A stretch of 64,000 nt of DNA from a virus: IMG/VR virus record IMGVR_UViG_3300005529_000001, positions 272,882-336,881 of that record; one strand, 5' to 3'. Of this stretch, positions 399 to 48,601 are shown piece by piece. Below the pieces are notes generated by a model. That model searched no databases, had not been told where the DNA came from, and saw nothing but the letters and a program-made list of their open reading frames with translations. Numbering within the stretch: the stretch's first letter is position 1; the number at the start of each line of letters is the position of its first letter. Both the position numbers and the translations under genes were made by a program.

Positions 399-893
399 TC
401 ACCTGTTCTTACGTAGGTCTCTCAGAGCTAGTTGCCGTTGTAACGGCCCAACCCTGTCCAACATCAAGATACCGTTAAGATGATCGATCTCGTGTTGTAC
501 AATCCGTGCAGCCCAATCGACAAAAGCTTCTTTGTGAGGTTTGCCCTCAACATCAAGGTACTCCACAACGACCCAAGCATGCCTGGGAACAGCTAATTTG
601 ACCCCAGGTAACGACAAACAACCTTCATCATCTGTCGTCTTGTCGTGTGATGTATCAATGATTATCGGGTTGATTATTGCACGAAGTTCGTTTCCTTGTG
701 CACCTGCGGTCGGATCCATCACCAAGATCTGGATTGTTGAGTTCACTTGGGGTGCCGCGAGTCCCACGCCATCACCAGCGTACATTGCCAGCGTCATCTC
801 CTCAACGAGCTTCGCCAACGTAGCATCAAAACGCTCAACGGGAGCGCAGCTCCACTTGAGATCTGAGCTGGGATACTCAACGATGTTTAGCAT
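399..893 (-). CDS. def: peptide deformylase
   Basis: All three PDF motifs: GVGLAAPQV (motif I), EGCLSLPG (motif II), QHEIDHLNG (motif III). Confidence 0.9.
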   Translation of the reverse strand: MLNIVEYPSSDLKWSCAPVERFDATLAKLVEEMTLAMYAGDGVGLAAPQVNSTIQILVMDPTAGAQGNELRAIINPIIIDTSHDKTTDDEGCLSLPGVKLAVPRHAWVVVEYLDVEGKPHKEAFVDWAARIVQHEIDHLNGILMLDRVGPLQRQLALRDLRKNR

Positions 894-1654
894 CAGCCTG
901 GTCTCTTCTTCCGAGCAGCCAATCGTTCCTTAACATCAGGCTGCTGCATCGCTGCGCGAGTCCGCTCTTTGATCAGTTGCTTTCGCTCATCTGTCATGTT
1001 CGCACGAGCGGTTTGAGACTGCTTCTGACGGTACGCTGGATTGGTGTGGGCTGCTTTGATGTTGGCTCGTCCTTCTACGGACTGCAATCCCGCTAGTTGC
1101 TTCTCATGGACTTCAGGACGTTGCATTGCTTCCATGGTTCGTTCAGAGACCATCTTCCGACGTTCGTCAGATGACATCTGCTCGACAAATTTGGCGTAAC
1201 GCTCGGACTCGTACATTGCTTCAGACGTTCGTTTGGAGATCGTCTCGCGTACTTCGGGGCGTGACATTGCTTCACGTTGACGCTGCTTCCATGATGGATC
1301 AGCGAGGACCATGCCCTCACGGGTGCGCTGAGAGATGAGTTGACGGGTTGCTTCAGACTTAGGACCTGATCCGTTGCCACCCTTCGTCATGTTGTAGCCG
1401 TTTGGCTTCTGCGTGTTGAGTTCCTTGATGTAGTAACGTTCGAAAGACTTAGCCTCCTTGAGTGTTTCAATACCGTCAAGGATCACTTCATGTGTGAACG
1501 CGTCAGGACCGTGTTCACGAATTGCTTTCATGAAGTCTTGCTCACCACCCTTGAAAGCACACGAAACATGTCCATCCCAACGACGTGTCATCGTCTGTTT
1601 GGTATAGCCGATATAACGCATGTTTTCACGGGTGTGACAGTAGATCAGGTACAT
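893..1654 (-). CDS. GIY-YIG homing endonuclease (I-TevI-like) with C-terminal tandem DNA-binding repeats
   Basis: N-terminal YLIYCH..YIGYT..RW..H and YYIKELNTQKPNGYNMTKGG closely parallel I-TevI FWIKELNSKINGYN; C-terminal four repeats of ~SERTxEAMxRPEV. Confidence 0.85.
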   Translation of the reverse strand: MYLIYCHTRENMRYIGYTKQTMTRRWDGHVSCAFKGGEQDFMKAIREHGPDAFTHEVILDGIETLKEAKSFERYYIKELNTQKPNGYNMTKGGNGSGPKSEATRQLISQRTREGMVLADPSWKQRQREAMSRPEVRETISKRTSEAMYESERYAKFVEQMSSDERRKMVSERTMEAMQRPEVHEKQLAGLQSVEGRANIKAAHTNPAYRQKQSQTARANMTDERKQLIKERTRAAMQQPDVKERLAARKKRPG

Positions 1655-3631: not shown

Positions 3632-5778
3632 TCGTCTTCCCCGTCGTCGATGATAAATACATCGCTTTCATGAAGCTGGTGACCGCTCAACGATCCACTC
3701 TCAACAAGCTCTACATCAACTGATCCGTTATTGCCATCGATCTCATCCTGGACATCGCGACCCTCGGACAGGACCTGGTTTGTGTTGTTCCGGGCTGCTT
3801 CCCACGTCTTGGTCATCTTGCCCAGGATGCTAGCAACATCTGGGGGCAACCCCATCCTGTTACCGGCGCTAATGAACTGAGGCGTTTCGTTCAACGTCTG
3901 TTCAATCTGATCTTTGGCCTCAGCAAACGGGTTTGAGATAACGCTCTTCATCCAATCAGCGTCTGTTGGATCTTCCATGGCATGGTTGTCAATACCCGTC
4001 ATCTTGACGAAGTCTGGCAAGTGAGTCTTGCTGGCACCATGAGTCCTACGCCGTGAGCGGTTGTAAAGAGCACGTTGCAGCTGAGACTGTGGCTTGACGG
4101 GAGGATCTTTGCTGTTTCCCGCTACCTTCAATGCAAATGACTCGTTGTCATCACGGTCATCGCCACCCGTCAGGAGCTGATGGCTGGGGTTCTCTTCTTC
4201 TTCGGCTTCTTCCCCAGCGTTTTCTTCAGGCGGCGTTTCTCCGCCGGCTTCTTCTCCACCTGCTTCGCCTCCCTCAGGAGCAGCTCCGCCTCCACCACCT
4301 CCCCCAAAGATGTCGTCAGTGCCTCCGCCAGTGTCTTCACCACCCGCTCCGCCAGCGACTCCCTCGATCGTGTCATCGATTTGTTTCTCCGCCATCCGCT
4401 CTTCATCAAGCGCCTCGACCTGCTCATCGTTAAGGCCCATGATTTCTTTGCGGATGAATTTCTTGCTGACAACGCCCTCAGGGGCTGAGCCGCCGATCTC
4501 GAACTTAGCACGCCACAGCTCGAGCTTCTGCTGTTGAGCGACCGTTGACGGGTTGCTTAGCCGCAACGTAAAGTTCTGCAAATCCTCGCTGTCATAACCG
4601 TGCGCATACAGGTGGATGATCGCTAGCTTGTTCAGCTCAGCCATCATTGTCTTTTGGACAACGTTGATTGTCCGGCTGAAGCGGATGTCTTCCTGAGCAA
4701 GCGTTGCCTTGCTAGAGAGCATCTCATCGTATCCCAAGTAGGCTCTGGGGATCTTAAGAGCCGCAAAGAGCTTTTTCTGGATGTACGCTACGTCCTCGAC
4801 GGCGGCGGTGTTCTGCCCGCCGGCTAACGTGTCGATCTTGGTTCCCGACTCTCCACCACGGACTGGGATGAAGAAGTCCTCCTCGACCGACATTGGATTG
4901 TAACGTAGGTCAACTCGTCCCGTGTTCCGATCAACGACCGGGGTCGTCCTCATCTGTTGGCGTTGTTGCTCGATGTAGGTGTTGACTTCGTTGGCGGGGA
5001 TGTTTGCGACATCAATGTAAAAGACGCGGCGCTCGGGAGCACGAACGACACGGTAAACCAACATCGCGTCCTCGATCAAGATCAACTGGCGCCAGATGCG
5101 GCGCGCTGGCTCGATGATCGAAGAACCATAGGGCAGGAACATGTCGTTGCCCAACAACCGGAAGTGAGTGACTTCCCAGTTTTCAAGCGTTCGGTTACCG
5201 AGAGTCACCCACCGGTAACGGACAGCGAACGGATCGTCCCTATCATAGTTCTCTTCACGCTCAATCTCGTTGACCGGGATCGGGAAAGCATTGATGACAC
5301 CGTATTCAGGAGAAACGTCGTTGTAGAGGAAGAAATCACCATACTTGCAGAGGTTTCGAGCCCACGAACGGAGGTTGAACTCGACGTTCAGGACGTTGTA
5401 AAACAAGTCCTCAAGCAGCTCTTTGATCTTCTCGTTGTCCGAGTAGATGTGAAGGACACGGCCCTTCTCGTCTTGGGCACACGTCTCATCAGCATAGATG
5501 TCCATCGCTGCCGCGATCTCAGGAGTGTACTCCATCTCCTGGAAGTCTTGGTAGCGCATCAAGCGCTCGCTCAGGTTGTACGCATTGGACGTGATCGTCG
5601 CGTACGTTGGTGAGAGTGACTTCTGGAAGAGGAGGGTACCTGATGACTTTGTCTTGTCAGCGACGGCGATCGTCGTGTCAAGGGCGCGGATCTTTCGCTT
5701 GACGACAGGTCCTGAACGGAACAGCCGGGTCAGCCTGCGAAATAAGCTCTTTGGTTCTCTCCTTGCCATCTCGTTCAC
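3628..5778 (-). CDS. portal vertex protein (T4 gp20-like) with internal Gly/Glu low-complexity insertion
   Basis: 716 aa protein directly between large terminase and scaffold/protease; portal-sized, remembered gp20-like overall architecture; acidic G-rich insert ~aa 480-540. Confidence 0.6.
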   Translation of the reverse strand: MNEMARREPKSLFRRLTRLFRSGPVVKRKIRALDTTIAVADKTKSSGTLLFQKSLSPTYATITSNAYNLSERLMRYQDFQEMEYTPEIAAAMDIYADETCAQDEKGRVLHIYSDNEKIKELLEDLFYNVLNVEFNLRSWARNLCKYGDFFLYNDVSPEYGVINAFPIPVNEIEREENYDRDDPFAVRYRWVTLGNRTLENWEVTHFRLLGNDMFLPYGSSIIEPARRIWRQLILIEDAMLVYRVVRAPERRVFYIDVANIPANEVNTYIEQQRQQMRTTPVVDRNTGRVDLRYNPMSVEEDFFIPVRGGESGTKIDTLAGGQNTAAVEDVAYIQKKLFAALKIPRAYLGYDEMLSSKATLAQEDIRFSRTINVVQKTMMAELNKLAIIHLYAHGYDSEDLQNFTLRLSNPSTVAQQQKLELWRAKFEIGGSAPEGVVSKKFIRKEIMGLNDEQVEALDEERMAEKQIDDTIEGVAGGAGGEDTGGGTDDIFGGGGGGGAAPEGGEAGGEEAGGETPPEENAGEEAEEEENPSHQLLTGGDDRDDNESFALKVAGNSKDPPVKPQSQLQRALYNRSRRRTHGASKTHLPDFVKMTGIDNHAMEDPTDADWMKSVISNPFAEAKDQIEQTLNETPQFISAGNRMGLPPDVASILGKMTKTWEAARNNTNQVLSEGRDVQDEIDGNNGSVDVELVESGSLSGHQLHESDVFIIDDGEDE

Positions 5779-6181: not shown

Positions 6182-7828
6182 TCACTTCCTGAGCCAGTCG
6201 AAGTCCGAGACAAAACGACCGTAGGGACTACGTTGCAATTCTTGTGGGTTTCGTGGCCGCATGACGCTGTACGCGTTGACGCCGGCGATGTTCGGGTCGA
6301 CAAGCGGTTGGGCTTCGTTGATGTTCCCGGGCATCTTGTTGATGTCTTTCCTGTCCACGTGGGTGGCAGCTAACATTGCGTATGCCATCTCGCGCGCTTG
6401 TTCGCTGACCTGACCACCACCTTCGATGAGCCATGTTCCGATCGCCAAGCTCAGGACCAGGTCATCCCACGAGTCCTTTCCCGCAAGAGCTTTGTTCCCT
6501 TCCCAGATGAACGACTGGAGCTGGTCAAACAGGCGTCGCGAATATGACCTCAGTTGCTTGTTCCTGATCAACTCTTCTAGCTTAGCCAAGATCTGTGTTC
6601 GGGTCTTCTGGTTTGTGTTTGGAAACCCAGGTAGCTCGTCCTTAGGATCGATGGGCATGTAGTTGAACGGGTCACCCGTGTGCTTGGGATAGTAGAGCTT
6701 TTTGTAGTTGATCTGGTCACGTAGTTTCACACAGACCAGGTATCCGAAGGTGTTTTGTTCTGGGATTATGAGGGCATCGCAGTACTTTTTGCCCCACTCC
6801 GCTAGCAAGTCTGCCAAGTGCTCTGGCGGGATCTTACCCATGTACTCAGCACACACCTCATTGTCAACGGTGTCAATGACATGGAACGCTGAGTAGTCAT
6901 GCGCATCACCACGGCTGACGTCCGCGCTCAACACATAACGGTGACCCGCGACAGGCGGGCTCCAAACCCAGACACCGCCCGCAGGCCCCTCTTTCGAGAT
7001 GGGTGGCATGATCATTTCACGCAGGTAATCGAGCTCTTCGGGCTGGAGGAATGTGTCACCTGATGCAATGAAGTCACACATGAACTCTTGCGCAATCTGA
7101 CGCTTGTTCATGCCCTTTGATTCGTTCTTGAACCATGCTTCATCGTGTTCAGGATGGACGGTCCAGTGAAGCCGGATGGGGTTGAAGCCGTTGAGTCCCG
7201 CTTCGGCTTCCGTCCACAAACGGTAATACTGCCCGCCGACGCCCTTGGGAGTCGATAGCACGATCGCCTTGCCACCCGTCGAGATCGTTGGTTTCAGACC
7301 CGTCCAGATCTCTTCAAAATCACGAATGATAGCAGCTTCATCAACTATCAGAAGCGACAATGCTTCTGATCGGCCCGCATCTTCAGATGTTGGGATGGCA
7401 ACAACCTGCGAGCCGTTGTCAAAAGTAATGGCTTGCTTGGTGGGCTCAAACTTGGGCAGCAACAACCACTTGGGCAAATTGTCAAGGATGACCTTGCACT
7501 TTTTGATCATGTTCATCGCGGTGGGAAGCTTGGTCGCGATGATGAGGATGTTCTGGTCCTTGTAAAAGATGGCGAGCCACGTTGCGTACGCTGCACATAA
7601 CGTAGACAGACCCAGCTGTCTTGACTTCAAGATGATGTTAAGACGGTGTTCTATGAACTGCCTGACGCAGTCATCCTGAAACGGGTACGTTTCAAATGGG
7701 AGCAAGCCTCGAGCGGGGTGCTGGATCTTGCAATACTTCTTCATGAAGTAGACAGGATCCTTGCCACACTTGATTATCTCCTCGATCTGCTCCTGCTTTG
7801 ACAGGGGTTTTGGAGCAGCTTTCGTCAT
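6182..7828 (-). CDS. terL: terminase large subunit (T4 gp17-like)
   Basis: Walker A-like KSRQLGLST (T4 SRQLGKT), Walker B LLIVDEAA, C-terminal RNaseH-like nuclease region (LSADVSRGDAHDYSAFHVID). Confidence 0.9.
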   Translation of the reverse strand: MTKAAPKPLSKQEQIEEIIKCGKDPVYFMKKYCKIQHPARGLLPFETYPFQDDCVRQFIEHRLNIILKSRQLGLSTLCAAYATWLAIFYKDQNILIIATKLPTAMNMIKKCKVILDNLPKWLLLPKFEPTKQAITFDNGSQVVAIPTSEDAGRSEALSLLIVDEAAIIRDFEEIWTGLKPTISTGGKAIVLSTPKGVGGQYYRLWTEAEAGLNGFNPIRLHWTVHPEHDEAWFKNESKGMNKRQIAQEFMCDFIASGDTFLQPEELDYLREMIMPPISKEGPAGGVWVWSPPVAGHRYVLSADVSRGDAHDYSAFHVIDTVDNEVCAEYMGKIPPEHLADLLAEWGKKYCDALIIPEQNTFGYLVCVKLRDQINYKKLYYPKHTGDPFNYMPIDPKDELPGFPNTNQKTRTQILAKLEELIRNKQLRSYSRRLFDQLQSFIWEGNKALAGKDSWDDLVLSLAIGTWLIEGGGQVSEQAREMAYAMLAATHVDRKDINKMPGNINEAQPLVDPNIAGVNAYSVMRPRNPQELQRSPYGRFVSDFDWLRK

Positions 7829-8241: not shown

Positions 8242-8544
8242 TCAGTCTACGTCAAAGGTGATTGCCAGAGGGGGTCTCTGGGCCTCCAGCTGGTTGACTT
8301 GCTCGGCGGTTGGTCTCCAGCCCTCTTTCCACTGCACGGACCTGGGCTGTGCCCAGAACAGAGCGCAACGTTCACAACAGCCCACAGCACGCCAGGAAGC
8401 CTCATCGTCACGCGTCCGCATCAAGCACTTGCAGACTGGACACGCTAGAGGAACGGGCGGCTCAGCGTCCGTTGGGACAATGACGACAAACCCCTCAGGT
8501 TGGTCTTCGATCAGACGGTCTCGGAGGTACGGTCTCCAGGCCAT
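8242..8544 (-). CDS. small Cys-rich (zinc-ribbon-like) protein
   Basis: CPVCKC...CCERC cysteine pairs in 100 aa ORF. Confidence 0.35.
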   Translation of the reverse strand: MAWRPYLRDRLIEDQPEGFVVIVPTDAEPPVPLACPVCKCLMRTRDDEASWRAVGCCERCALFWAQPRSVQWKEGWRPTAEQVNQLEAQRPPLAITFDVD

Positions 8545-11135
8545 GCTTCACTGTACACCACCCGTGCATCCTTCTCGACCTTGTTCACCTCGATGATGTG
8601 GTCAGCAACGTCCTTGACACCCTCGACATGAGTGATAACGATGATGGTCTTGAAGTACCTCTTCAGCGACATCAACAGCCGGTTGCACTGTTCGATCGAG
8701 GCTGGGTCCATCGGGCCAAACGCTTCGTCAATGATGAACATGTCTGTCTTGGGCAACGATGAGAGATTGATCAGGGCGACACGGAGGGCAATGGAGGCCA
8801 CTGTCTTCTCCATGCCCGAGCCTAGCTCGATCGGGCGGCGGCTGTCACCGTAGTTGATGTAAACTTCCATCGCATCGCTATCGTTGTCAACCTCAAGCTC
8901 GATGTTGAAATTGACAATGCCCGTGAGGATCTTGCTGATCTCCGCATTGATGACAGGTAACTGGCTGGTGATGATTAGGTTTGGTATTCCCTTCCGTGAG
9001 AAGGCTTGAGCGATCAACTCATGCGCTTTCATCAAGCCAAGCATCTTTTCACGTTGCTCGCGGTCCTGTTCCAGCTTATCATAGTTAGACTGTTCACGAC
9101 CCTTCTTTGAAGCCAAGTCAAGTCTCTCACTGTCAACCTGACGGAGACGGCGGAGTAGGTCATCTTTCCGGTGACGAAGCGCAACTGCTTCAGCGTTCTC
9201 CTCGTTCTTAAGCGCTTCCTCGAGCTCAATGAGCTTCTGGTTCGCTTCTTTCACCCGAGGATAGAGGACGCTGTTGAGCTCGAGCATCTTCTTGTCATAA
9301 TCACGTTGTTCGTCTGCTAACTTGGTCAACAGGTCACCACGCATGTTACGCAGCTGGAGCAGCTTCGTTACCCGGTTGGACAGGTCCTCGTGGCGTAGCT
9401 CCACGAGCGCGTCATCTGCTTTGTTCAGCTTCTCCAACGCTTTTTCGACACGTTCCTTCTGCGGTTCGACCTTGTCTTTGACTTTATGCGCGTCCTTAAT
9501 GAATCGGCAACCTGGGAACTGATCACCACAGGGCACATCATCCAAGATTTTAAGCGACCGTTGTTGTTGCTTCAACAGGGCAGCTTCCTTTTCATGAACA
9601 ACACGTAGCTGATCGACAGCGGCCTCAAGCGTCTTATAAGCCTCAAGCCTCTTCTTCAGTTCATCAACGTCATTGTCGCGGAGCAAAGCGTCAATGGTGC
9701 TGACCTTCTGTGACTTCTGGCTCATCGAGGTCACCAGGTCACTGATCTGTTCATTGACCTTGGCACCCTGGTCACGCAGTGACTGAAGATATGACCGTTG
9801 TTTCTCGACCTCCGTCGGGGTAACCATCACTACGTCCTTAAAGGACGATTCTTCTCGGGCAACATCGGTGAGCTGGACTTGGATGTCGTGCTTCTCGTGA
9901 TCCTTGATCCCGATCTGGGCATCGAGGCTCTCGAGCGTTTCTTCAAACTTCCGTTGCGCCTCGGGCCAATCACGATCGGGCAATGACTTCAAGGCGGTTT
10001 TGTTAACGTTGACGTCATCCTTGGCTAGGTCATACATCTTGTCAAAGATGTCGAGATCCAAGAATCGTGCCACGGTCTGGCGCCGTTTGGTCGAGCCTTG
10101 GTTGATGTACTGTTTGATGTCGTCCTGTGCAGCGATGCTCGTCAGCAAGGCATCCTCGCCGCTGCCAATCAGCTTCCTGATGACACGGTCAGTGTCCTTA
10201 CGTTCTTCACCACCCAAGTCTTCCAGTTCACCCCCATCGACAATTTTGAAGACATTAAGGTGAGTGTTAGCGTGCTGGCGGCCCCACTTGTCTTCGTGCT
10301 TAACGGTCTGGCGTTCGATGATGTAGTCGCTGCCGCCCGAGTTGATGATGGCTCGGGCGTAAGCGTAGTCGTGCCGCACGTTGACAACATGGAGGTTCTT
10401 GATGCTACCGCGGTCCGACGTGTTGAACAGGACGTACAGGATGGTACCCACCACTGACGACTTGCCCTGACGGTTGGGACCGAAGATGCCGACGATGCCA
10501 TTCAGAGCATCGAAGTTGATGATGTTCCCCTCACCGTACGCGAAACAGTTGTCCCACTTCAGGTTACGAAGTGTCCACTTGGTGTTCCGAGCCACCTCGT
10601 CGTTGCCCAGGACCTTGCCCAGGTAATGGATGATCTGATCACGAACAGCTTGCCATTCTGTCTCAGTAACGTGAGAAGACGTGTGATAGTCCTTCAGCAA
10701 CCGTAACAGGACGTCCGGGTTGCGCAAGTCGTCCTTTGCAAGCGTCGCGGTACCAGCGCTGATCAGCTCCCTATCGAGTTGGTGATCTGTCTTGAAAGTC
10801 ACCTCACTAGCTTTCAGCTGCTCTTGCAGCTGTGACATCAGCTTGGTCACTTCTTTTTGGGCCAGGATCTCTGTCTTGCTCCTGATGCGATACCGCGTAC
10901 CAGGCGGGTAGTTAGCTACCTTCTTCAGGGTCTTCTCAACGTCACCCGCCCAATCAACAGTCACAAACGGTTTCGGATTGGGCAGTTCTTCGAACTTGAC
11001 ATCAAACTTGTCCCTGTTCTCGATGTCCCACAACAGGTAACCGTGAACCAATGACTCGCCATAGTTTTGCTGGACCGGACTGCCGGGGTACGCGACCCAC
11101 GGCCGCTTGACGCGGATCTTGATACGCTTGCTCAA
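8511..11135 (-). CDS. Rad50/SbcC-like recombination ATPase (T4 gp46-like) carrying an N-terminal segment homologous to the C-terminal part of Mre11/SbcD; starts at TTG overlapping upstream TGA
   Basis: N-terminus VAYPGSPVQQNYGE resembles SbcD YxGSPxxxSF segment; then Walker A GPNRQGKSS, long coiled coil, signature LGSGMEKT (LSGGE), Walker B MFIIDEAFG, H-loop ITHVE; GAGGTG SD 5 nt upstream of TTG. Confidence 0.85.
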   Translation of the reverse strand: MSKRIKIRVKRPWVAYPGSPVQQNYGESLVHGYLLWDIENRDKFDVKFEELPNPKPFVTVDWAGDVEKTLKKVANYPPGTRYRIRSKTEILAQKEVTKLMSQLQEQLKASEVTFKTDHQLDRELISAGTATLAKDDLRNPDVLLRLLKDYHTSSHVTETEWQAVRDQIIHYLGKVLGNDEVARNTKWTLRNLKWDNCFAYGEGNIINFDALNGIVGIFGPNRQGKSSVVGTILYVLFNTSDRGSIKNLHVVNVRHDYAYARAIINSGGSDYIIERQTVKHEDKWGRQHANTHLNVFKIVDGGELEDLGGEERKDTDRVIRKLIGSGEDALLTSIAAQDDIKQYINQGSTKRRQTVARFLDLDIFDKMYDLAKDDVNVNKTALKSLPDRDWPEAQRKFEETLESLDAQIGIKDHEKHDIQVQLTDVAREESSFKDVVMVTPTEVEKQRSYLQSLRDQGAKVNEQISDLVTSMSQKSQKVSTIDALLRDNDVDELKKRLEAYKTLEAAVDQLRVVHEKEAALLKQQQRSLKILDDVPCGDQFPGCRFIKDAHKVKDKVEPQKERVEKALEKLNKADDALVELRHEDLSNRVTKLLQLRNMRGDLLTKLADEQRDYDKKMLELNSVLYPRVKEANQKLIELEEALKNEENAEAVALRHRKDDLLRRLRQVDSERLDLASKKGREQSNYDKLEQDREQREKMLGLMKAHELIAQAFSRKGIPNLIITSQLPVINAEISKILTGIVNFNIELEVDNDSDAMEVYINYGDSRRPIELGSGMEKTVASIALRVALINLSSLPKTDMFIIDEAFGPMDPASIEQCNRLLMSLKRYFKTIIVITHVEGVKDVADHIIEVNKVEKDARVVYSEAWPGDRTSETV

Positions 11136-11779
11136 GCAATCACCTCAGCTTCTGGGTATTTTGCGAGTTCGCTCTCGTCAATCTCGAGCTCAACGTCTCG
11201 ACCCGCTAGGAACTGCATCTTGTGAATGTCTCCAAGCAAGACAAAGTCCCAACCACGGAAGAACTCAACCGTGATGCCCTCTTCAACCAACCAGTCACTC
11301 TCGGTTGTTGCTCCCCACACGGGACCGTGATAACACGCGATGTTGATCTTGCCGGGTACGGGCTTTACGTTGTCCCAGTTCGGTTCATCGAACAAGCTGA
11401 AGATGCCCCAGATATATCCGGGCGAAAACTCATACGTACCACTTTCCTTGTAGACGTGAATACGTGGGTTCTTCAACGCTTTGACGATGGGCGTCACCGC
11501 ATCCAAACGTGACAGGTTGACAAGGTTACCGTCGTGGTTTCCGAGAGTAAGATGCAGTTCAGCTGTCTCTGACAACGTTTCAAGCCACCAAACCATCTGT
11601 TCGATATACTCAGGCGACAAGCCTGAGGTCTTGGTGTGAAAGATGTCGCCTCCTACAAAGACGTGGTCAACCTTCTGTTCTTTGACCTGACGTGCAAAAG
11701 CAGAAAACACCTCTCGGTATTCGTCGTGCCTCGATAGTCCTCGCCAGTGAACGTCGGCAGTGTGAGCGATCCTCAACAT
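11132..11779 (-). CDS. Mre11/SbcD nuclease, N-terminal phosphoesterase domain only (T4 gp47-like)
   Basis: Motifs I-V present: AHTADVHW, GGDIFH, GNHD, CYHGP, GDIH; ORF stops (TGA) right after motif V where homologues continue. Confidence 0.85.
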   Translation of the reverse strand: MLRIAHTADVHWRGLSRHDEYREVFSAFARQVKEQKVDHVFVGGDIFHTKTSGLSPEYIEQMVWWLETLSETAELHLTLGNHDGNLVNLSRLDAVTPIVKALKNPRIHVYKESGTYEFSPGYIWGIFSLFDEPNWDNVKPVPGKINIACYHGPVWGATTESDWLVEEGITVEFFRGWDFVLLGDIHKMQFLAGRDVELEIDESELAKYPEAEVIA

Positions 11780-11848: not shown

Positions 11849-12853
11849 TCAACGTGAAAGAACGGTTCTTGACACAAAATCGAGCTTATCTCGAAACGAT
11901 TCAAACCAAGAAAACGAAGGAGCGGAAGCAATCAGTTGCTTCATCTGTGCCTTCGTTAGGCTACCTGGATCGGCATCTTTGGGCAACCGAACAATTCTGA
12001 CGGGTACATCGTAATCTACTAGCTTCCTCGCAAGGACGGGTACCTTGGTGTACCTCATGTCATCATCCAGAGCTATCACGATGGGCGTGTTATGCGCAAC
12101 GATAGCGTTAAACAACGTGCTCTCTTCGTTAAGATCGCTGCCTAACAGTGGAACAGAATTGTCTGGACACTTCACCAGATCGAAAGGACCCTCACACAAG
12201 ACAAGCTCACGTGTCCAATCGATATTCAGTTCATTGAAGATGATGGGTAGCTTGTCTTCATCTGGGTTGTCATACCGCTGTTTGAACTTGTCGATCGCTC
12301 TCCCCACGAAATAGTTCAACTCCCCCTCGCCGTTGAAAGAGGGCATGATGACCCGTCGTTTCCACCTGGGATCATCGCTATATCCCAGCTTGAAATACCA
12401 GAGATCGCGTTCCGTCAAGCCACGACCCCTTGGCATCGGTTCCATCAAATACCGTCGCATCGCAAGGACATCAGGATCACGTAATGACGCAGTCGCCAGC
12501 AACTTGAAGTCCTTGGGTAAAGCCAGCTTTGGCTTCTCTTCCATGACGTCAATGATGAGACATCTCCGCCGGGGTCCCTCTTGGGCCGGCATGAACTTCT
12601 CAACGTACTCAAGCAGTTTGTCTCTGGTCGAGTATTTCTTCAGCAACGGTGCCAGGGTGTGAGCCTTGTACCCACACGACCAACAATGGCACCTGTCATC
12701 CTCGATCAGGATCGCTAGCTTCTTCTTGCTGTGATCTTTCGGAGCGCAGATGGGACAACGAACGTCAAAATTCTTGCCGTTCCTCGCTAGCTTTCCGCTG
12801 CCAAAACAGCTCTCGATGAACCGAACTTTGTCTGAGATTGTGATCAGACCCAC
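11849..12853 (-). CDS. DNA primase (DnaG/T4 gp61-like)
   Basis: Zinc finger CPICAPKDH...CHCWSCG and TOPRIM-like LCEGPFD. Confidence 0.8.
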   Translation of the reverse strand: MGLITISDKVRFIESCFGSGKLARNGKNFDVRCPICAPKDHSKKKLAILIEDDRCHCWSCGYKAHTLAPLLKKYSTRDKLLEYVEKFMPAQEGPRRRCLIIDVMEEKPKLALPKDFKLLATASLRDPDVLAMRRYLMEPMPRGRGLTERDLWYFKLGYSDDPRWKRRVIMPSFNGEGELNYFVGRAIDKFKQRYDNPDEDKLPIIFNELNIDWTRELVLCEGPFDLVKCPDNSVPLLGSDLNEESTLFNAIVAHNTPIVIALDDDMRYTKVPVLARKLVDYDVPVRIVRLPKDADPGSLTKAQMKQLIASAPSFSWFESFRDKLDFVSRTVLSR

Positions 12854-12868
12854 GCGTCAATCGTAACC

Positions 12869-13495
12869 CTAGTCGTCCTTCTTGGACTTCTTGGGCTTTT
12901 TGACTTGGATAATGGGACCATCGATCGCGGCCGCTCGAGCGATCACGTACGCATCCGTTGCATCACGTGACCAATCAACGATGAGACCGCTCTTCTTCAG
13001 AGGCCACTTAACTTCCTTGAGATCATGTTCCTGCATGTGCTTGAAGACCTGTTCCTTTTGCGACATGCCTGCCACAGAAGTTCGTTGGAGCTTGATCCCC
13101 ACGGCCTTGCGGGCATGGTTAGCACTGATGTATTCAGGAGTAACGTTGTAGATCTTCCGTGCCAAGTTGCTGACAATGCCGTTGAACCGAAGCAACATTG
13201 AGATCGTCTGCGCACTTGACATCCCGGGCCTAAAACCCATCAACGGCTCTTCCAAGACGACGCGGTCAATAACAACGTGATACTGCGCGTTCAGGGTTCC
13301 CTCGATCGCTTTAAGCGCGTGTTCAACCAGATCACACTTGTCCCAGAACGTTTTGCATTTCTTGAACTCGATCCTGTCTAACAGGTAGTGATCACCTGCA
13401 GGCCAATCGCTGTTAAGAACGCAGTACCCCGTACACGAGGTGCTGACGTCAAGGCCCAAGATGACTGCCATGCACAGATCGTGGCCCACAAACAC
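12869..13495 (-). CDS. RuvC-family Holliday junction resolvase-like protein
   Basis: N-terminal ILGLDVSTSCTGYCV resembles RuvC/YqgF catalytic start (IGIDPG..TG); basic C-terminal tail. Confidence 0.55.
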   Translation of the reverse strand: MFVGHDLCMAVILGLDVSTSCTGYCVLNSDWPAGDHYLLDRIEFKKCKTFWDKCDLVEHALKAIEGTLNAQYHVVIDRVVLEEPLMGFRPGMSSAQTISMLLRFNGIVSNLARKIYNVTPEYISANHARKAVGIKLQRTSVAGMSQKEQVFKHMQEHDLKEVKWPLKKSGLIVDWSRDATDAYVIARAAAIDGPIIQVKKPKKSKKDD

Positions 13496-13507
13496 TCACA
13501 GTAAACT

Positions 13508-13906
13508 TTACTTCAACAAGCCAAGGAGCTTCAGCTCCTTCTCGGTCATTATCACCAAAGTGACACCGTGGGCTTGACACCACCCTGCAGCCGCCTTCAG
13601 CTTCTTCTGGACCCGAGCTTGGTCCAACTTCCGTTGGGGCTTGATCTCGACCAAAAGTTGTTGGCCATCTCGTAGTTGGACAAGGAAGTCAGGCCAGTAT
13701 TGTCTGACTTTTCCCGTCTTTTTGTTCGAGATGTACTTGATCGACACATCTTCATACCGGTACCCCACGACGCTGTCATCAGCGTCTAGGTGTTGCATGT
13801 ACGCAAACTCCCATCCCGATCGGTAATGACACTCCTGGCCTGTCTTTGGAGACACATGGATGCCCGTGTGGTAACGCTTCTTCCGTTTTCGCTTTTTAGC
13901 TACCAT
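13508..13906 (-). CDS. PD-(D/E)xK nuclease, TnsA/endonuclease-like (possible freestanding homing endonuclease)
   Basis: YWPDF...LLVEIKP (D...E-x-K) core; same core as C-terminus of ORF 16791..17651. Confidence 0.5.
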   Translation of the reverse strand: MVAKKRKRKKRYHTGIHVSPKTGQECHYRSGWEFAYMQHLDADDSVVGYRYEDVSIKYISNKKTGKVRQYWPDFLVQLRDGQQLLVEIKPQRKLDQARVQKKLKAAAGWCQAHGVTLVIMTEKELKLLGLLK

Positions 13907-13913
13907 GATGTCA

Positions 13914-16772
13914 TCAAAAATCGTGCTTAATCTTGAACATCACACGATCACCCGTCCGTTTTTGGATCGGCTGCGCTAGTGTCGTCTTCATCACCACGTT
14001 CATATCGCTGTCGTGGAAGTTGATGTTGGTAACATAAGAAAAAGTGTTTTCAGGATCGTTTGGGTAACCTGTCGGTGGTACAGCCTTGAAGGCTGGGTTG
14101 CTCGATGAGTTCAGCTGGTTGTTGGGTGCGATGGCGTCAATCTTCATCACGTGGATGTGTTGCTCACCCCGCAAGTACATGCTGTACTGGTTGGCACCAT
14201 AGAAATAGAGGTGCGGGCTCTTGATGACGACCTCCCCCTCATCGTAATAGACATTACCCACGCTGTTCCACGTTGACTGGCTTGTCACGCAATCAGCGCG
14301 ATAGATGTTGCCACGACCATCATCAGCCAGGGTGATGCTGATGGGTCCTACAAAGCTGGCGGTGTTTGACAGAGCGCTAGCACCGTACAGGCTTGAAAAC
14401 AACAGATCAGGGTCGGTAAATGTCAATGTCGTGGGATTGATCCGAAACCCGTAAAACAAGTTGCTAACATCAAAGACAACAACTTCGTTTGATGATGGGT
14501 CTTGTGTCCGTTGGTAGACCGTCAGCGGAGCACCTGCCTCGACGTCCGAACCCGAGGGCACTGTGTTGATGAAGTTGAACATGGCTGGACCCGCCTTTTG
14601 GAAGGGGGTCTCAGGTGTAGCACCGATCTGTGTGTTAGCAAAAGCGTTAACCTGAACAGAGGGTTGCGTCCCATCATCAAATGCACCTGCTCCAAAGAGC
14701 AACGTGCTAGACATCACCATGTTATCAAGGTTGATGAAGCTAAGTTCATTAACACCCAAATCATCGACGGCGGTAACCAAGCTCTCCGATACCAACAACT
14801 GGAAACTGGGAACGAACAGCCCATCATCGCAGGGAAGGATTGTCAAGTTTCGTTTGATGACAAATGGCTGTGAATACAGGAAATCGTTACACGTTTCCGC
14901 GTTGGTTGATGTCTTGATCGCTACGCCAGTCAAATGATGAAGCAATGGGAAGTTTTCGCTAGCTAGGTCTTTGACAAAGTTCTCTAGGTTGATGTAATGA
15001 CCCGCTACTCCAAATGACAACGCAACGCTAAAGGGTTGGGTAGTTGAACCGTTGACCTCTTGGAAAGGTGTGACCAAGATACCACCGTGATCGATGACAA
15101 ACTGACGGTAGGGTGCCTGGTTTGCAAAGAAGGGTGGAACATAAAGGGCATACGTGTTGTCTAGGAATGTCGGACCCACGCTGGTGCTGGTTGCGATGTC
15201 AAGGTCTGACATGTAACACCGACGGATCGCAACGTCATGGAGCTCAGCATTCAACGGGTGATCAAATGCATAAGTTGCAGGTGTTTCAATGCCCGCAATG
15301 GGCCACATGTTGTTGAGGCCATCACGAAGGGCTGGCTGGTTTGCAAAGAACGCAGCCTGCGGGTTACTGCTGTTGTTTGGACCGTTGTAGTAGTTTCCCA
15401 AGACCAGCGTTGCAGGTTGGTCTTGGGTCACTCCCGGGATCTTTCCGTAAGAGTGTGAACCAAAGGTGACGATGTCCTGAAGAGATGGCGTGATCTGGTT
15501 TAGTGGCACCGTGAAAGTGCCAACATCTACGCCATCGACATTAAACGTTCCGACGCCGTTATTGGTGTATGTGGTCCCCCACCTGACGACAACGTGATGC
15601 CAGTGGTTTTGCCACAAGACGTTGTCGTTAGATTGGAAAACCAAGTATGCTGATGGGTGAGCGCTAGCTGACTGGTTTCCAAACGTTCCAGACGCAATGT
15701 ACCAGTCGCCTGACGATGGTTCTTGGTATAAGCTGCTGGGCGGTATGTCAGCAGATGATGATAGCTGCAATTGCAAGCGGAAACCAACAGGACGACCATT
15801 GGTGTCCTTGCTTGATCCAGTCACCAACGACAGACAGAACGTCGATGACAGGTGAAGGATGGTTCCTGCCTTGAACGTTCCGTTTGGGTTATCGGTGCTG
15901 TACCTGGGATTGATGTGGAAATCAAAACTGAACGAGCCCGACGGAGTGTAAGTGCCGCTACAGAAGCCATCGTGCCTGACCAGCAAGCCCTTTCCTCCAT
16001 CGATGTTGGGATACAAAATTGCGCTGTCGGATGGCACCACAGATGCTGTGAAGAAATTCAATGAGTTGTAGTTTGTGTAAGCCCAATGTGCGGTTGGGTA
16101 GACGCTGCGGTAGAAAGTGTTGAGTTGGTCTTTGATGACTAGCTTCCGCAGAGTGTTGCTGTTGAAATCGGGCGGGGGACTGAAGCGTTGTGGATCAAGA
16201 ACTTCTTTCAATCGTGCAGCTTGCGGTTGAGCTGCGCAAGCGTTCATGTATTGTTGCATGATCGCTGGAAAGCTAGCGACCAACTGAGCGTTAGAGATCG
16301 TTCCATGGATCAACGAGAGGTATGTCCCATCTCCTGGAAGCAACGTGCTTCCCGATTTCATGTAGATGGTCCCACTCACCGTCACAGAAGTTGGGTTTGA
16401 GAGAACGAAACTCGATGGCGTCAATGCAGGATCACCCGCGGAAGGAAACTGGATCCCAACGAGCTTTCCGTTCGCAAAGGTGCAATAAAAGTTGCCATTG
16501 AACGGAACCGAGACGGAGAAATACGGGTTCCGCAGGCTCTTTGCAACAAAGGTGACCTGGCGTAACAGCGATGATAAGTCAGCATCGTCATGAGCCGACT
16601 CAACAAACGAGGAATCAGGCTGGACGTCTTTCTGGATCAGCGAGTGTCTCGGAAAGAGGTAAACGGAACCCGTTGACCCGTGGAGCGATGAGGACGTGTA
16701 TGACCTGATCGGGTTAGTAACGACGGTGAATGTTTCAACGTCTGATGGGTCTACGGCGTAGATCGATGGCAT
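13914..16772 (-). CDS. large virion structural protein, paralog of ORF 17648..18892 at both termini (candidate contractile-sheath family member with insertion domains)
   Basis: N-terminal AVDPSDVETFTVV vs paralog EILPSDIKTA; C-terminal ENTFSYVTNINFHD...PIQK...DRVMFKIKHDF vs EQTFTYVTSVGMYD...PVQK...RDLTFRVRLDF; Ser/Thr/Asn-rich. Confidence 0.5.
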   Translation of the reverse strand: MPSIYAVDPSDVETFTVVTNPIRSYTSSSLHGSTGSVYLFPRHSLIQKDVQPDSSFVESAHDDADLSSLLRQVTFVAKSLRNPYFSVSVPFNGNFYCTFANGKLVGIQFPSAGDPALTPSSFVLSNPTSVTVSGTIYMKSGSTLLPGDGTYLSLIHGTISNAQLVASFPAIMQQYMNACAAQPQAARLKEVLDPQRFSPPPDFNSNTLRKLVIKDQLNTFYRSVYPTAHWAYTNYNSLNFFTASVVPSDSAILYPNIDGGKGLLVRHDGFCSGTYTPSGSFSFDFHINPRYSTDNPNGTFKAGTILHLSSTFCLSLVTGSSKDTNGRPVGFRLQLQLSSSADIPPSSLYQEPSSGDWYIASGTFGNQSASAHPSAYLVFQSNDNVLWQNHWHHVVVRWGTTYTNNGVGTFNVDGVDVGTFTVPLNQITPSLQDIVTFGSHSYGKIPGVTQDQPATLVLGNYYNGPNNSSNPQAAFFANQPALRDGLNNMWPIAGIETPATYAFDHPLNAELHDVAIRRCYMSDLDIATSTSVGPTFLDNTYALYVPPFFANQAPYRQFVIDHGGILVTPFQEVNGSTTQPFSVALSFGVAGHYINLENFVKDLASENFPLLHHLTGVAIKTSTNAETCNDFLYSQPFVIKRNLTILPCDDGLFVPSFQLLVSESLVTAVDDLGVNELSFINLDNMVMSSTLLFGAGAFDDGTQPSVQVNAFANTQIGATPETPFQKAGPAMFNFINTVPSGSDVEAGAPLTVYQRTQDPSSNEVVVFDVSNLFYGFRINPTTLTFTDPDLLFSSLYGASALSNTASFVGPISITLADDGRGNIYRADCVTSQSTWNSVGNVYYDEGEVVIKSPHLYFYGANQYSMYLRGEQHIHVMKIDAIAPNNQLNSSSNPAFKAVPPTGYPNDPENTFSYVTNINFHDSDMNVVMKTTLAQPIQKRTGDRVMFKIKHDF

Positions 16773-16790
16773 GATTCCTGTCTAACTACC

Positions 16791-17651
16791 CTACACCACG
16801 ATCCCAAGGTCCCTCATGACCTGTCGGGTGATGTGGCGGTAATCGTTGAACCCGTTGGCCCGACTGTACTCTCGACCCGCCGCAGCGGTGTTCATCACCC
16901 GCTCCGTCAGCAGGAACTCTTCTGGTTTGACCTCCCAGATCTCCTTTGAACCATCGGTAAAGTAGACGATGAAGTCGGGCACGTGCCATCGCTTGTTGTT
17001 GTTATAGTAGTATGGGATCTTCAGGCTCTCGTATTCCCAGCCCTCGACCGTCGGGCTGGCGTCAAGGAACTTCATCGCCGCTTCCTCCCAGCTCGACTTG
17101 AAGAAGTGTTCCTTGGTATTCTTCACCGACACGTAGGTTCCCTTCTTGTTCTGGGTGCCGTAGGACCGGAACCTGCCCTCAGTGATCGCCTGTGCCTTCT
17201 TCTCTGACATCTTGGCGCGCGTCTCTTCCGAGTGCTTGCGGCCGTACATGCCGTTGTTGGTGCCAGACCGCTTCTCACCCTTCGAGACCTCGCTCAGGTG
17301 GCGTTTCGTCTCCTCGGTGTGGCTCTTCCCCAGCCAGGGTCGCCATTCTCCTCGGGCTGCCTTTTCTTGGATCGTGGCTTTCGCTTTGGCGTGTGACGCA
17401 GGCGAGTTCAGTGCCTGGATCGACTTCTGCCACGTCTCCGGGTGATCGTGCTTGTACTTGCCACGACACTTGTTGTCGCAGAAGTGCATCACTCCGCGAT
17501 CCCTGGTCTTTGACCCTTCGATGATCGCTTCACAGGCATCACACTTGAAGCGATGGACAATGCTCTTGCGGTTGGTGACGAGAGATCGCCGCTCGATAAT
17601 CTCCAGGAGCATGGCAATAAGTACCACGCACACTGGCGTTAGCAACGTCAA
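16791..17651 (-). CDS. homing endonuclease-like protein: NUMOD3 DNA-binding repeats fused to PD-(D/E)xK nuclease domain
   Basis: Two GKSHTEETKRHLSEVSKG / GRKHSEETRAKMSEKK NUMOD3-type repeats; C-terminal WHVPDFIVYF..EIWEVKP nuclease core; sits between two paralogous structural genes. Confidence 0.65.
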   Translation of the reverse strand: MTLLTPVCVVLIAMLLEIIERRSLVTNRKSIVHRFKCDACEAIIEGSKTRDRGVMHFCDNKCRGKYKHDHPETWQKSIQALNSPASHAKAKATIQEKAARGEWRPWLGKSHTEETKRHLSEVSKGEKRSGTNNGMYGRKHSEETRAKMSEKKAQAITEGRFRSYGTQNKKGTYVSVKNTKEHFFKSSWEEAAMKFLDASPTVEGWEYESLKIPYYYNNNKRWHVPDFIVYFTDGSKEIWEVKPEEFLLTERVMNTAAAGREYSRANGFNDYRHITRQVMRDLGIVV

Positions 17652-18892
17652 AAATCGAGGCGAACCCTAAAGGTCAGATCCCTCTCAGGCGACTTCTGGA
17701 CGGGCCTGGACAACTTGGCGACCGCCAACAGGTTGTCGTTTGCGTCATACATGCCGACACTGGTGACGTACGTGAACGTCTGCTCGGTGTCTTCCTGACC
17801 CACATCGATGACAACGATGCGGTTTGTCGTGTCGGTGAACGTTGGGTTCGATGTGTAGTTGAACTCATCAGCTTCACACCTGCAGAAGATCAACGTTGAG
17901 TTGATGTTAGTGATGTTCTGAAACGTCAATGCTGTCTGTGATCCAGACCCCATGCGACAGGAAGCGATGTGATCAACGATGTTATCGATCGAGGCGCTGA
18001 CCATAAAGTCAGGGATGAACGCTGACTTGAACTGCGTCTGGGTACCCGAAGCTCCAAGGACTGTCGTTCCTGGCGGGGCCATCGCATCAATGGTTCCAGA
18101 AACGAATTGCGATCCTGACGTGATCTTTGACATGTCAAGGACCAGGACCCCGCGATCATAGAACATCAAGCCCACGTTACGGGCGGTGTTTGCGCTGTCA
18201 ACGACGTTGCCGACCTGCCCACCAAACGTCGACAGTTTGTTGGTCGCTGCTCCGATGTCAGTGTAGATAGCAGACCCTGACGTTGACGTGATAAATAGGT
18301 TGGGAACGCAGAGGTTGTTGGTCTCAGCTGGGTGAGTGCCGTCTCCAGTGCCAGCTGCTGATTCGTTGATCGACGCCGTCTGGAAGAAACGCATTGCGAA
18401 CGTTTCACGCTTGATGCTGTCACGTGCAAACAGACGCTTGAACGCAACGAACAACGTGACATCCATCTGATCAGCGGGGTTGCTCGAATCGATCGGTGAC
18501 GTGAACTTGCTTGTGGGTGAACCCAACAACGCGGTGGCAAACTGCCGGTAGACATCCATCTTCTCACGAACCATCAGCGATGAAGATGGGAACAGCTCCT
18601 TGCCAGCTGAGTCAACGCCAGTCTGGCTGGTCAGCTCAGTTGCTCCGCCCGGTTGCAAACCAACCGTCATGTCAAAGATGGAGTTGGCAGTTTGAAGGGT
18701 AAAATCCTGATCGTAAACAGTCTGGAACAGAGAGCTAGTGACTCCGGGACCGACGCCTCCCGTCACAAACACCTGGTACTTGCGACGAGAGACTGAACCG
18801 CTGATGTCCTGTTGAAGAACATCGATCAACTGGTTCAAGAACGATCTAGCGGTCTTGATATCGCTGGGAAGAATCTCTTTGAACGTTGCCAT
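17648..18892 (-). CDS. virion structural protein, shorter paralog of ORF 13914..16772 (candidate sheath-family)
   Basis: Shared N- and C-terminal motifs (see 13914..16772); 414 aa is minimal-sheath size. Confidence 0.5.
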   Translation of the reverse strand: MATFKEILPSDIKTARSFLNQLIDVLQQDISGSVSRRKYQVFVTGGVGPGVTSSLFQTVYDQDFTLQTANSIFDMTVGLQPGGATELTSQTGVDSAGKELFPSSSLMVREKMDVYRQFATALLGSPTSKFTSPIDSSNPADQMDVTLFVAFKRLFARDSIKRETFAMRFFQTASINESAAGTGDGTHPAETNNLCVPNLFITSTSGSAIYTDIGAATNKLSTFGGQVGNVVDSANTARNVGLMFYDRGVLVLDMSKITSGSQFVSGTIDAMAPPGTTVLGASGTQTQFKSAFIPDFMVSASIDNIVDHIASCRMGSGSQTALTFQNITNINSTLIFCRCEADEFNYTSNPTFTDTTNRIVVIDVGQEDTEQTFTYVTSVGMYDANDNLLAVAKLSRPVQKSPERDLTFRVRLDF

Positions 18893-34279: not shown

Positions 34280-34885
34280 TCAGGCACCGATGATCTTGTC
34301 AACAATGCCTAGCTTGATCGCGTCTTCGGGTGTCAAAAAGTAGTCAAGCATCGGGCGCATAAAGTCCTTCTCTACTTTCTCCTTTGACATCTTTGTCTCT
34401 TTCACGAGAGCGCTGACCATCAGCTCCTGGAGCCGGCGCGCTTCTTTTGTCTCGTTTTCCATCTCAAAGATGTTTCCCATGACGCCTCCTGAGATCGGGT
34501 GGATCATGATGCGTGCAGATGCACCGATCAACCGCTTGCCCTTGACTCCAGATGCCAGCAAGAGCACGCCTGCCGACATCACCTTTCCCAAACCCACCGT
34601 GTGAACGGGACACGGCAAAAACTTGAGGATGTCATAGAGAGAAAACATCTCGTCAACGCTGCCACCGTAGGTTGACACAACAAGATAGATCGGGTTCCGA
34701 TTCAGGTTAGCGAGGTGTAGTAATTGCGCGATAACATTCGCAATCGAGTGTTCGCTGACCTCGCTATGCAAGTACACGATCCGAGTGTTGTCTACTTGCG
34801 ACGCTAGAGCACGAGTGAGATGCTCGATCTGATCTTCTTCTTCCGCAGTGACACGGTTCCGGTTTTCAAGCGTCGCTCGACCCAT
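34280..34885 (-). CDS. clpP: ClpP-family serine protease
   Basis: GKVMSAG (Ser), IMIHP (His), downstream Asp region; ClpP-sized (201 aa). Confidence 0.8.
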   Translation of the reverse strand: MGRATLENRNRVTAEEEDQIEHLTRALASQVDNTRIVYLHSEVSEHSIANVIAQLLHLANLNRNPIYLVVSTYGGSVDEMFSLYDILKFLPCPVHTVGLGKVMSAGVLLLASGVKGKRLIGASARIMIHPISGGVMGNIFEMENETKEARRLQELMVSALVKETKMSKEKVEKDFMRPMLDYFLTPEDAIKLGIVDKIIGA

Positions 34886-47998: not shown

Positions 47999-48601
47999 TT
48001 GGTGTACATTTGTTCTATGGGCAAGACGCGAAACGGCTTTGCGACGTGTACAGATTGCGGAGACGTTCGCTTCATGAAACGTCTAAGCTCGTCTGGATTT
48101 CGACTCTGTCGTAAGTGTGCTGCCAAACTGACAAATGCTCGAAGCAACTCTGCCTCGAAAGGCGGAAAAGTAGGCGGGAAACGAACGGCTGATCTGGGAA
48201 AATTGCAGGTTGCTGGACAGTTTGCTCACACTCCAGAAGCGGAGCGTAAGCGACACGAAACGTTGAAACGCATGGGCAAACTCTTTTCTTCCAAACCAGA
48301 AGAACATCTTCATAAATTGCTCATTGATCGGTTCGGTCCAGAAGATGTCGACCACCACATAATCGTGGCAGGGTTTCGGATCGACTTTTACGTCAAAAGT
48401 ATCAATACTTACATCCAGTTGGATGGCGCTTACTGGCACGGACTTCAACAACCCTACGATCAGTTGAAAGGTACACCCAAAGCGAAGTACGATCGAGACA
48501 GACGATGTGATGCCTACTTCACCGAAGTTGGAGTCCGTCTCGTCAGGATCATTGATACTGAGCTAGCGAAGGACGCTCAACATGCCCTCCAACGGATCTG
48601 A
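47999..48601 (+). CDS. DUF559/Vsr-like endonuclease domain protein with N-terminal zinc ribbon (homing endonuclease-like insertion)
   Basis: CTDCG...CRKC plus FRIDFYV...IQLDGAYWHG core. Confidence 0.5.
   Translation: MVYICSMGKTRNGFATCTDCGDVRFMKRLSSSGFRLCRKCAAKLTNARSNSASKGGKVGGKRTADLGKLQVAGQFAHTPEAERKRHETLKRMGKLFSSKPEEHLHKLLIDRFGPEDVDHHIIVAGFRIDFYVKSINTYIQLDGAYWHGLQQPYDQLKGTPKAKYDRDRRCDAYFTEVGVRLVRIIDTELAKDAQHALQRI

Follow-up and report, generated by a model that had tools for sequence, protein, structure and literature searches.

A putative free-standing homing endonuclease joining NUMOD3 modules to a TnsA/gp4-like nuclease domain in an uncultured T4-like jumbo phage

We analysed a 64,000-nucleotide stretch of viral DNA (positions 272,882 to 336,881 of IMG/VR record IMGVR_UViG_3300005529_000001; hereafter, the window), the source of which is an uncultured, distantly T4-like jumbo phage, and characterized a minus-strand gene that encodes a predicted nuclease of 273 amino acids (aa). 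The mechanically called open reading frame (ORF; 16791..17651, minus strand) reads 286 aa from a TTG at 17651. All 30 aligned homologues start at the ATG at 17612, as does the database protein P0001 (273 aa, 100% identical to the window nuclease and encoded on a 369,506-bp metagenomic contig), and the gene therefore most likely spans 16791..17612. It lies between genes for a 414-aa and a 952-aa protein, and the same nuclease core recurs in a small gene next to the latter. The features of the locus are as follows.

16791..17612, minus strand: putative free-standing homing endonuclease of 273 aa, comprising a zinc ribbon, two NUMOD3 motifs and a TnsA/gp4-like PD-(D/E)xK nuclease domain
17352..17612, minus strand: N-terminal zinc ribbon domain (aa 1–87; CxxC...CxxxC with C24, C27, C45 and C49), a presumed DNA-binding module
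17184..17333, minus strand: two NUMOD3 helices in a flexible linker region (aa ~94–112, GKSHTEETKRHLSEVSK; aa ~119–143, NNGMYGRKHSEETRAKMSEKKAQAI)
16794..17141, minus strand: C-terminal PD-(D/E)xK nuclease domain (aa 158–273)
17085–17087, 16974–16976, 16932–16934 and 16926–16928: catalytic codons of E176, D213, E227 and K229, respectively
16773..17647, minus strand: inserted cassette of 875 bp, from the stop of the 414-aa gene to the ATG of the 952-aa gene
17648..18892, minus strand: gene for the 414-aa protein, the upstream flank, highly conserved and part of a structural gene block
13914..16772, minus strand: gene for the 952-aa protein, the downstream flank
13508..13906, minus strand: single-domain TnsA-like nuclease of 132 aa, orthologue of the T4 gp4 head-completion nuclease and a core gene

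An earlier note, made from the letters of the window, had read the 273-aa gene as NUMOD3 repeats joined to a TnsA-like PD-(D/E)xK core, and both parts were recovered by Pfam above cut-off: NUMOD3 (PF07460) in two stretches (E 1.2e-12, 48 bits versus a cut-off of 20.4) and Tn7_TnsA-like_N (PF08722; E 4e-9, 37.3 bits versus 26.5). PHROG 15427 ('endonuclease') matches the protein almost end to end. The core motifs quoted in that note are present, and the residues E176 (SSWEE), D213 (VPDF), E227 and K229 (EVKP) are invariant in an alignment of 31 sequences that reaches down to 27% identity. In an AlphaFold2 model built from the homologue alignment (mean predicted local distance difference test score (pLDDT), 84.5), the nuclease domain scores 89–97; a Foldseek search of this model against the PDB returned Tn7 TnsA first (1t0f/1f1z, E 1.6e-5, probability 1.00), followed by other PD-(D/E)xK nucleases (Card1, Exo5, Cas4-family and NucS), and a sequence profile search found T7 endonuclease I (E 8e-4) as well as TnsA. 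Model and alignment thus agree on a restriction-endonuclease fold with an E...PD...ExK active site, the fold that the note had proposed. The protein has no Pfam match to Vsr/DUF559 or to the TnsA C-terminal domain at E ≤ 1, and lacks the EDxHD motif.

The N-terminal domain, which the first reading had overlooked, is modelled with pLDDT values of 82–93 and gives weak profile matches to L24e and MYM-type zinc ribbons; C24, C27 and C49 are invariant in the 31 sequences and C45 is at least 90% conserved. The NUMOD3 region forms two helices in the model (100–111 and 129–145) with pLDDT values of 59–74, as is expected of an extended or flexible DNA-binding linker, and weakly matches the DNA-binding domain of I-TevI (1i3j, E 0.04).

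The distribution of the gene among relatives was determined by sampling their loci through the 414-aa flanking gene (the best 80 of 286 IMG/VR relatives, 60–89% identity), a probe that leaves the sample unbiased towards the nuclease because it is a neighbouring gene. Occupancy was counted in the 75 loci that contain both flanking genes (61 clusters at ≥97% identity). The site is empty, with the flanking genes 6–100 bp apart, in 45 of the 75 loci (36 of 61 clusters), contains some TnsA-like nuclease gene in 14 (12 clusters) and contains other, unrelated inserts in the remaining 16 (13 clusters); none of the 14 TnsA-like occupants belongs to the subfamily of the window gene. Comparison of the flanks thus bears out the proposal that the 273-aa gene is a sporadic intergenic insertion. 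Even among the five closest relatives, the flanks of which are 83–89% identical to the window, the state of the site varies. The two closest (L010, 1827–2467; L011, 8604–9241) carry two small ORFs, a third (L012) carries another pair of small ORFs, a fourth (L013) has a 397-aa TnsA-like gene of another subfamily and in the fifth (L014) the site is an empty 6-bp gap. The small ORFs of the two closest relatives encode a Cys-rich protein of 75–77 aa (MxxHYCINCPRC...) and a protein of 131–132 aa, neither with a Pfam match.

A different impression, that of a conserved core gene, came from loci found through the nuclease itself: all four such relatives (L003, L005, L006 and L007) carry the gene at the site it occupies in the window (48–66% identity). 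That impression arose because sampling through the nuclease is biased, and the flanking-gene probe reversed it. All five intergenic gaps of the block have bimodal lengths, either tens of base pairs or 0.4–2 kb, and the structural block is therefore a set of insertion hot spots. An ORF of ~200 aa lies between the gp4 and RuvC-like genes in many loci (L016, L027, L031, L042, L044, L050 and others) and one of ~300 aa between the genes for a 238-aa and the 414-aa protein (L016, L018, L025 and others); among the ORFs in these other slots, one has a NUMOD3-like match.

Members of the window's own subfamily do occur in the set sampled through the 414-aa gene, but exclusively at a second site, in the gap that separates the 952-aa gene from gp4. 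Five of these copies (L012, L019, L026, L036 and L038) have strong NUMOD3 and nuclease scores. A subfamily copy in L023 (5829–6373) is split over two overlapping frames of 136 aa and 81 aa and is an apparent pseudogene in decay. Within the subfamily, copies do not sort by site, which suggests switching between the two sites. At the first site, the 74-bp 'empty' gap of four relatives (L016, L017, L067 and L074) keeps an exact 22-nt match to the window (ATCGTGGTGTAGGGTAGTTAGA; window 16781–16802; E 3e-9 in a small search) that spans the last 12 nt of the nuclease ORF and 10 nt downstream of it; this would most simply be a deletion footprint of the cassette. The boundaries of the cassette can be followed in a pair of relatives, one with the gene (L006) and one without it (L069), that share 80–86% identity along their length apart from three clean insertions; one of these is an 863-bp nuclease cassette in place of 39 bp. 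The first 100 nt to the right of this cassette are 98% identical (L006 10825–10925 versus L069 4920–5020) against a background of ~80%, and may represent a short conversion tract or a conserved target. Presence/absence polymorphism, apparent movement between sites, and gain, decay and loss of copies together make up the pattern that free-standing homing endonucleases show.

The second copy of the nuclease core, in the 132-aa ORF, had also been taken for a homing-endonuclease-like insertion. The similarity itself holds (35% identity over 102 aa between the cores of the 132-aa and 273-aa proteins, E 9e-18), and Tn7_TnsA-like_N is found in the small protein with E 2.8e-18 (66.7 bits versus a cut-off of 26.5). 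Its position between the 952-aa gene and the RuvC-like gene is fixed, however, in 63 of 66 loci (48 of 51 clusters), as in a conserved core gene, the outcome that the earlier note had named as counting against an insertion. The protein matches PHROG 218 ('head closure', E 5.8e-26) and gp4 of the T4-type phage NC-G (33% identity, E 2e-18), which itself matches PF08722 at E 3e-24; the nuclease core of the 273-aa protein is 36% identical to T4-type gp4. Matches to the 132-aa ORF were found in 2091 phage records, mostly from T4-like coliphages, cyanomyoviruses and their relatives, and among the matches listed the annotation is mostly head completion or head closure. By homology and position, the 132-aa ORF is the gp4-type head-completion nuclease of this phage, a core gene and not a mobile insertion. 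Three more distant relatives (L078, L087 and L089) lack a detectable gp4 orthologue at this position, and no TnsA-like domain was found anywhere in their 17-kb loci; in these phages gp4 may be encoded at another place or have diverged beyond detection. T4 gp4 was predicted in 2005 to be a PD-(D/E)xK nuclease resembling TnsA and T7 endonuclease I (PMC1189080), and PMC7824862, citing Benler et al. 2020, describes gp4 as a hallmark of T4-like ('group 2') jumbo phages, the nuclease activity of which is required for morphogenesis.

Relatives of the 273-aa protein are also present in cultured phages. In Proteus phage PM2 (L193, MF001355.1, 1320–4052), a 291-aa relative with the same layout (Cys-rich N terminus, NUMOD3-like motif and SSWE...DF...EIRP) lies between two fragments of uvsW; the position of the catalytic lysine reads EIRP in this ORF, not ExKP. 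An intein N-terminal splicing (Hint) domain closes the N-terminal uvsW fragment, and the C-terminal part of an intein opens the C-terminal fragment. This matches the 'fractured genes' of Dassa et al. 2009, with a free-standing homing endonuclease placed between the two halves of a split intein (PMC2677866). In Escherichia phage TB34 (Krischvirus; L002 1705–4852) and Shewanella phage Thanatos-2 (L001 467–3567), the ATPase domain of the terminase is split at position 106/107 of Pfam Terminase_6N, with a TnsA-like domain fused to the N-terminal fragment; unlike in PM2 uvsW, Pfam found no intein domains in these split terminase genes. Settings of this kind, in PM2 as in TB34 and Thanatos-2, are classic ones for homing endonucleases (PMC2677866). 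A relative of the window phage (L007, 19673–20834) likewise has a split terminase followed by a TnsA-like ORF. Structural matches over the full length of the 273-aa protein in BFVD are phage proteins named 'endonuclease', 'NUMOD3', 'TnsA N-terminal domain-containing', 'endonuclease I' or 'Holliday junction resolvase', and those limited to the nuclease domain are named 'head completion nuclease'; there is no consistent functional name for the family among them.

A profile of the alignment matched 229 clusters (50% identity) at E ≤ 1e-30 among 1.84 billion representatives, and most of the best 150 of these 229 match from about profile position 20 to the C terminus. In a neighbour-joining tree of nuclease domains, the gp4 orthologues of the clade form one group (bootstrap 82/100) with the homing-endonuclease-type domains outside it, and the placement of T4-type gp4 relative to the homing-endonuclease-type domains has a support of 11/100. 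We attempted to root the origin of the homing-endonuclease-type domains within gp4; because the deep split of all gp4 from these domains has this same low support, we claim no direction of descent. The statement in the earlier note that NUMOD3 modules normally accompany GIY-YIG or HNH nucleases is outdated, as reports from 2009 and 2011 (PMC2677866, PMC3239194) already describe NUMOD modules (tandem NUMOD3 or NUMOD2) on the N-terminal side of a restriction-fold, Vsr-like EDxHD nuclease. A census of PD-(D/E)xK enzymes lists as homing endonucleases the Vsr/DUF559 and Ssp6803I families only, and TnsA (PF08722) only as a transposase (PMC3424549). Our search of the open-access literature, which is weak evidence of novelty, found no paper on NUMOD3 with TnsA, NUMOD with PD-(D/E)XK or a TnsA-like domain with a homing endonuclease. 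The TnsA/gp4-type catalytic domain is plausible as a new homing endonuclease family.

Two further genes of the window resemble homing endonucleases:

893..1654, minus strand: GIY-YIG free-standing homing-endonuclease-like gene between a 138-aa gene and the peptide deformylase gene, a sporadic insertion
47999..48601, plus strand: restriction-fold (REase_MTES_1575-like) homing-endonuclease-like gene, a sporadic insertion

The GIY-YIG assignment made previously was upheld by Pfam (1.2e-8) and by a PHROG homing endonuclease family. The gene is absent from the four closest relatives, in which its neighbours abut; it occupies the same site in L103/L104 (63% identity), L109, L116, L120 and L129, and another site in L147/L150/L151. 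The plus-strand gene had been labelled DUF559. It is indeed a sporadic, restriction-fold homing-endonuclease-like gene, with matches to PHROG 'HNH/homing endonuclease' families, but the label is approximate: its match is to REase_MTES_1575, below cut-off (27.4 versus 38.2 bits), a restriction-fold family that we take to belong with Vsr/DUF559 among the Pfam clans. None of the 21 related loci has the gene at this site, and in ~9 of them the flanking genes are directly adjacent; one of the 21, L181, contains a 35% match ~2.6 kb upstream. Because the 132-aa ORF is the core gp4 gene, the window holds three sporadic homing-endonuclease-like insertions and one core nuclease, not the four insertions previously counted.

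The surrounding genes are those of a distant T4-like myovirus:

2112–2771: gp21-like prohead protease
3628–5778: portal
6182–7828: large terminase
8511–11779: gp46/gp47-like SbcCD
11849–12853: primase
12869–13495: RuvC-like resolvase

The window also encodes a peptide deformylase (399–893), a PhoH-like protein (29917–31377), a fragment match to a GroEL-like chaperonin (37413–38609) and a ClpP-like protease (34280–34885), the last being a second protease beside the gp21-like prohead protease. At the DNA level the region has no match among 50,697 phage records, and a close cultured relative was not found; the best terminase matches, from Flavobacterium and Microcystis phages, are ~40% identical. 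Neither the 414-aa nor the 952-aa flanking protein matched Pfam, PHROGs or PDB in sequence searches. The two share a C-terminal domain of ~100 aa (26% identity, E 1e-8; window 17648–17950 and 13914–14210), and both terminate in ...DF. Five places in Microcystis phage Mel-JY01 match the 414-aa query. A motif resembling a late promoter (GTATARTTA) precedes the 952-aa gene in relatives and is absent from the window.

We conclude that the 273-aa gene is probably a free-standing homing endonuclease gene, lacking an intron or intein, and put the probability of this reading at roughly 0.8. From established knowledge of I-TevI, the T4 Seg/Mob enzymes and I-Bth0305I, a course of homing can be proposed. 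As in I-TevI, the zinc ribbon and NUMOD3 modules would adopt an extended conformation on a long target of relaxed sequence specificity. The nuclease would thereby be positioned to cut an allele without the gene where the 414-aa gene (3′ end) meets the 952-aa gene (5′ end), or close to that point. The cut could be a double-strand break, made by a dimer or by sequential nicks, or a nick only. During mixed infection the break would be repaired by the recombination machinery of the phage, for which gp46/47-like and RuvC-like genes adjoin the locus, with the gene-bearing genome serving as the repair template, so that the gene and nearby markers would be copied into the recipient. The carrier would be immune, protected either by the insertion itself, which parts one half of the target from the other, or by differences in its flank.

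Several observations weigh against homing by this enzyme. The copies at the window's site in four relatives diverge like their flanks (48–66% versus 65–80%), which also fits vertical inheritance of a gene retained in a sub-lineage. Co-conversion was sought in the window's own flanks and no donor-like tract was seen; the 3′ end of the 414-aa gene in the window most resembles that of three gene-less relatives (L010–L012). TnsA cuts one strand only and T7 endonuclease I is structure-specific, so sequence-specific double-strand cleavage cannot be assumed from the fold. Cleavage, target site and homing are, moreover, predictions from sequence.

One rival explanation holds that the protein is a domesticated accessory nuclease that does not home, and serves instead to degrade host or competitor DNA, to exclude superinfecting relatives or to process DNA for packaging. 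Strict conservation of the active site and of full length in 31 homologues, down to 27% identity, would suit such a role, as would the divergence of same-site copies in step with their flanks and the lack of a visible co-conversion tract in the window, and the sister family gp4 is a nuclease with a non-selfish role, according to PMC7824862, citing Benler 2020. We nevertheless consider this explanation unlikely: neither the five closest relatives nor most members of the clade carry the gene, the subfamily uses two different intergenic sites and has left a broken copy and a 22-nt remnant, and relatives of the protein lie inside fractured genes with split inteins, where a useful gene would not be expected, as between the intein halves of uvsW. 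Another possibility is that the window copy is itself an inactive or decaying relic of a formerly mobile gene. Homing endonuclease genes often decay once fixed, and the L023 copy shows such decay; the window copy, however, is full length with all family-invariant residues intact, which makes this reading improbable, more so than a domesticated function.

The resemblance to gp4 could instead indicate a second, longer gp4 paralogue that acts in head completion or DNA-end processing, in keeping with the identity of the core to the window's gp4 orthologue (35%) and to T4-type gp4 (36%) and with the location of the gene in the structural block. Most relatives nonetheless lack the 273-aa gene but retain gp4, the gp4 orthologues of the clade group apart from the homing-endonuclease-type domains (bootstrap 82/100) and the added DNA-binding modules are typical of homing endonucleases; we regard a paralogue as very improbable. 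Least credible of all, to the point of being negligible, is the idea that the protein is TnsA from a Tn7-like transposon. TnsA is indeed both the Pfam name and the best fold match in the PDB, yet the protein has no Pfam match to the TnsA C-terminal domain at E ≤ 1, has no TnsB- or TnsC-like neighbours, is flanked by conserved phage structural genes and comes as a single 875-bp gene cassette.

A free-standing homing endonuclease, if this is what the 273-aa gene encodes, may also stand for an unrecognised lineage in which a gp4/TnsA-family nuclease is joined to N-terminal zinc-ribbon/NUMOD3 modules, which is abundant in phage metagenomes and drives the split-intein 'fractured genes' (PM2 uvsW) and split terminases described above; we give this broader proposition about even odds. 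The homing endonuclease families known so far number only a handful, and every one of them has been a source of tools and of insight into selfish DNA. As the families are defined by their catalytic domain, a TnsA/gp4-type domain with N-terminal NUMOD3 would add one, and a single nuclease family would then supply not only a core enzyme of virion assembly and a subunit of a transposase but also a selfish enzyme for homing. Tractable cultured examples are available in Proteus phage PM2, Krischvirus, Shewanella phage Thanatos-2 and Bacillus phage Moonbeam. For annotation, the labels 'head completion' and 'head closure' are being transferred to mobile nucleases; when a T4-like phage has a small TnsA-like ORF, on the other hand, this will usually be gp4, not a mobile element.

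The nearest known systems each share part of this organization. For a canonical PD-(D/E)xK site in homing there is a precedent in I-Ssp6803I (cited in PMC3424549 and PMC2677866), although that enzyme is intron-encoded, lacks NUMOD modules and belongs to PF11645, which the 273-aa protein does not match. Tn7 TnsA provides the best solved-structure match to the catalytic domain and the same pattern of catalytic residues; the 273-aa protein differs from it in lacking the C-terminal domain and the TnsB/C partners, and in its setting as a phage gene cassette. T4 gp4 belongs to the same nuclease family (PF08722) and is 33–36% identical to both window proteins, but is a single-domain core gene at a fixed position, whereas the 273-aa gene is sporadic and encodes three modules. 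I-TevI and the T4 Seg/Mob enzymes resemble the 273-aa gene in their sporadic, free-standing intergenic occurrence in T4-like phages and in a DNA-binding region with a zinc finger and a NUMOD3 minor-groove helix, and SegB provides the precedent for cutting of a gene-less allele followed by recombinational repair (PMC2330249). In these enzymes the nuclease is an N-terminal GIY-YIG or HNH domain and DNA binding is C-terminal; the 273-aa protein has the reversed order and a PD-(D/E)xK nuclease. Closest in design are the EDxHD/Vsr-like homing endonucleases, such as I-Bth0305I. The catalytic domain of the 273-aa protein differs from theirs in being TnsA/gp4/T7-endonuclease-I-like, with a canonical E...PD...ExK site and a match to PF08722 instead of Vsr/DUF559, and the protein has an extra N-terminal zinc ribbon. 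Otherwise the plan is the same: the NUMOD modules, which in two members are tandem NUMOD3, stand N-terminal to the restriction-fold nuclease (PMC2677866, PMC3239194), an order that is, as here, the reverse of that in GIY-YIG and HNH enzymes. In phages the EDxHD/Vsr-like enzymes occur as free-standing genes, between split-intein halves and in introns, and the PM2 relative of the window protein likewise lies between the halves of a split intein.

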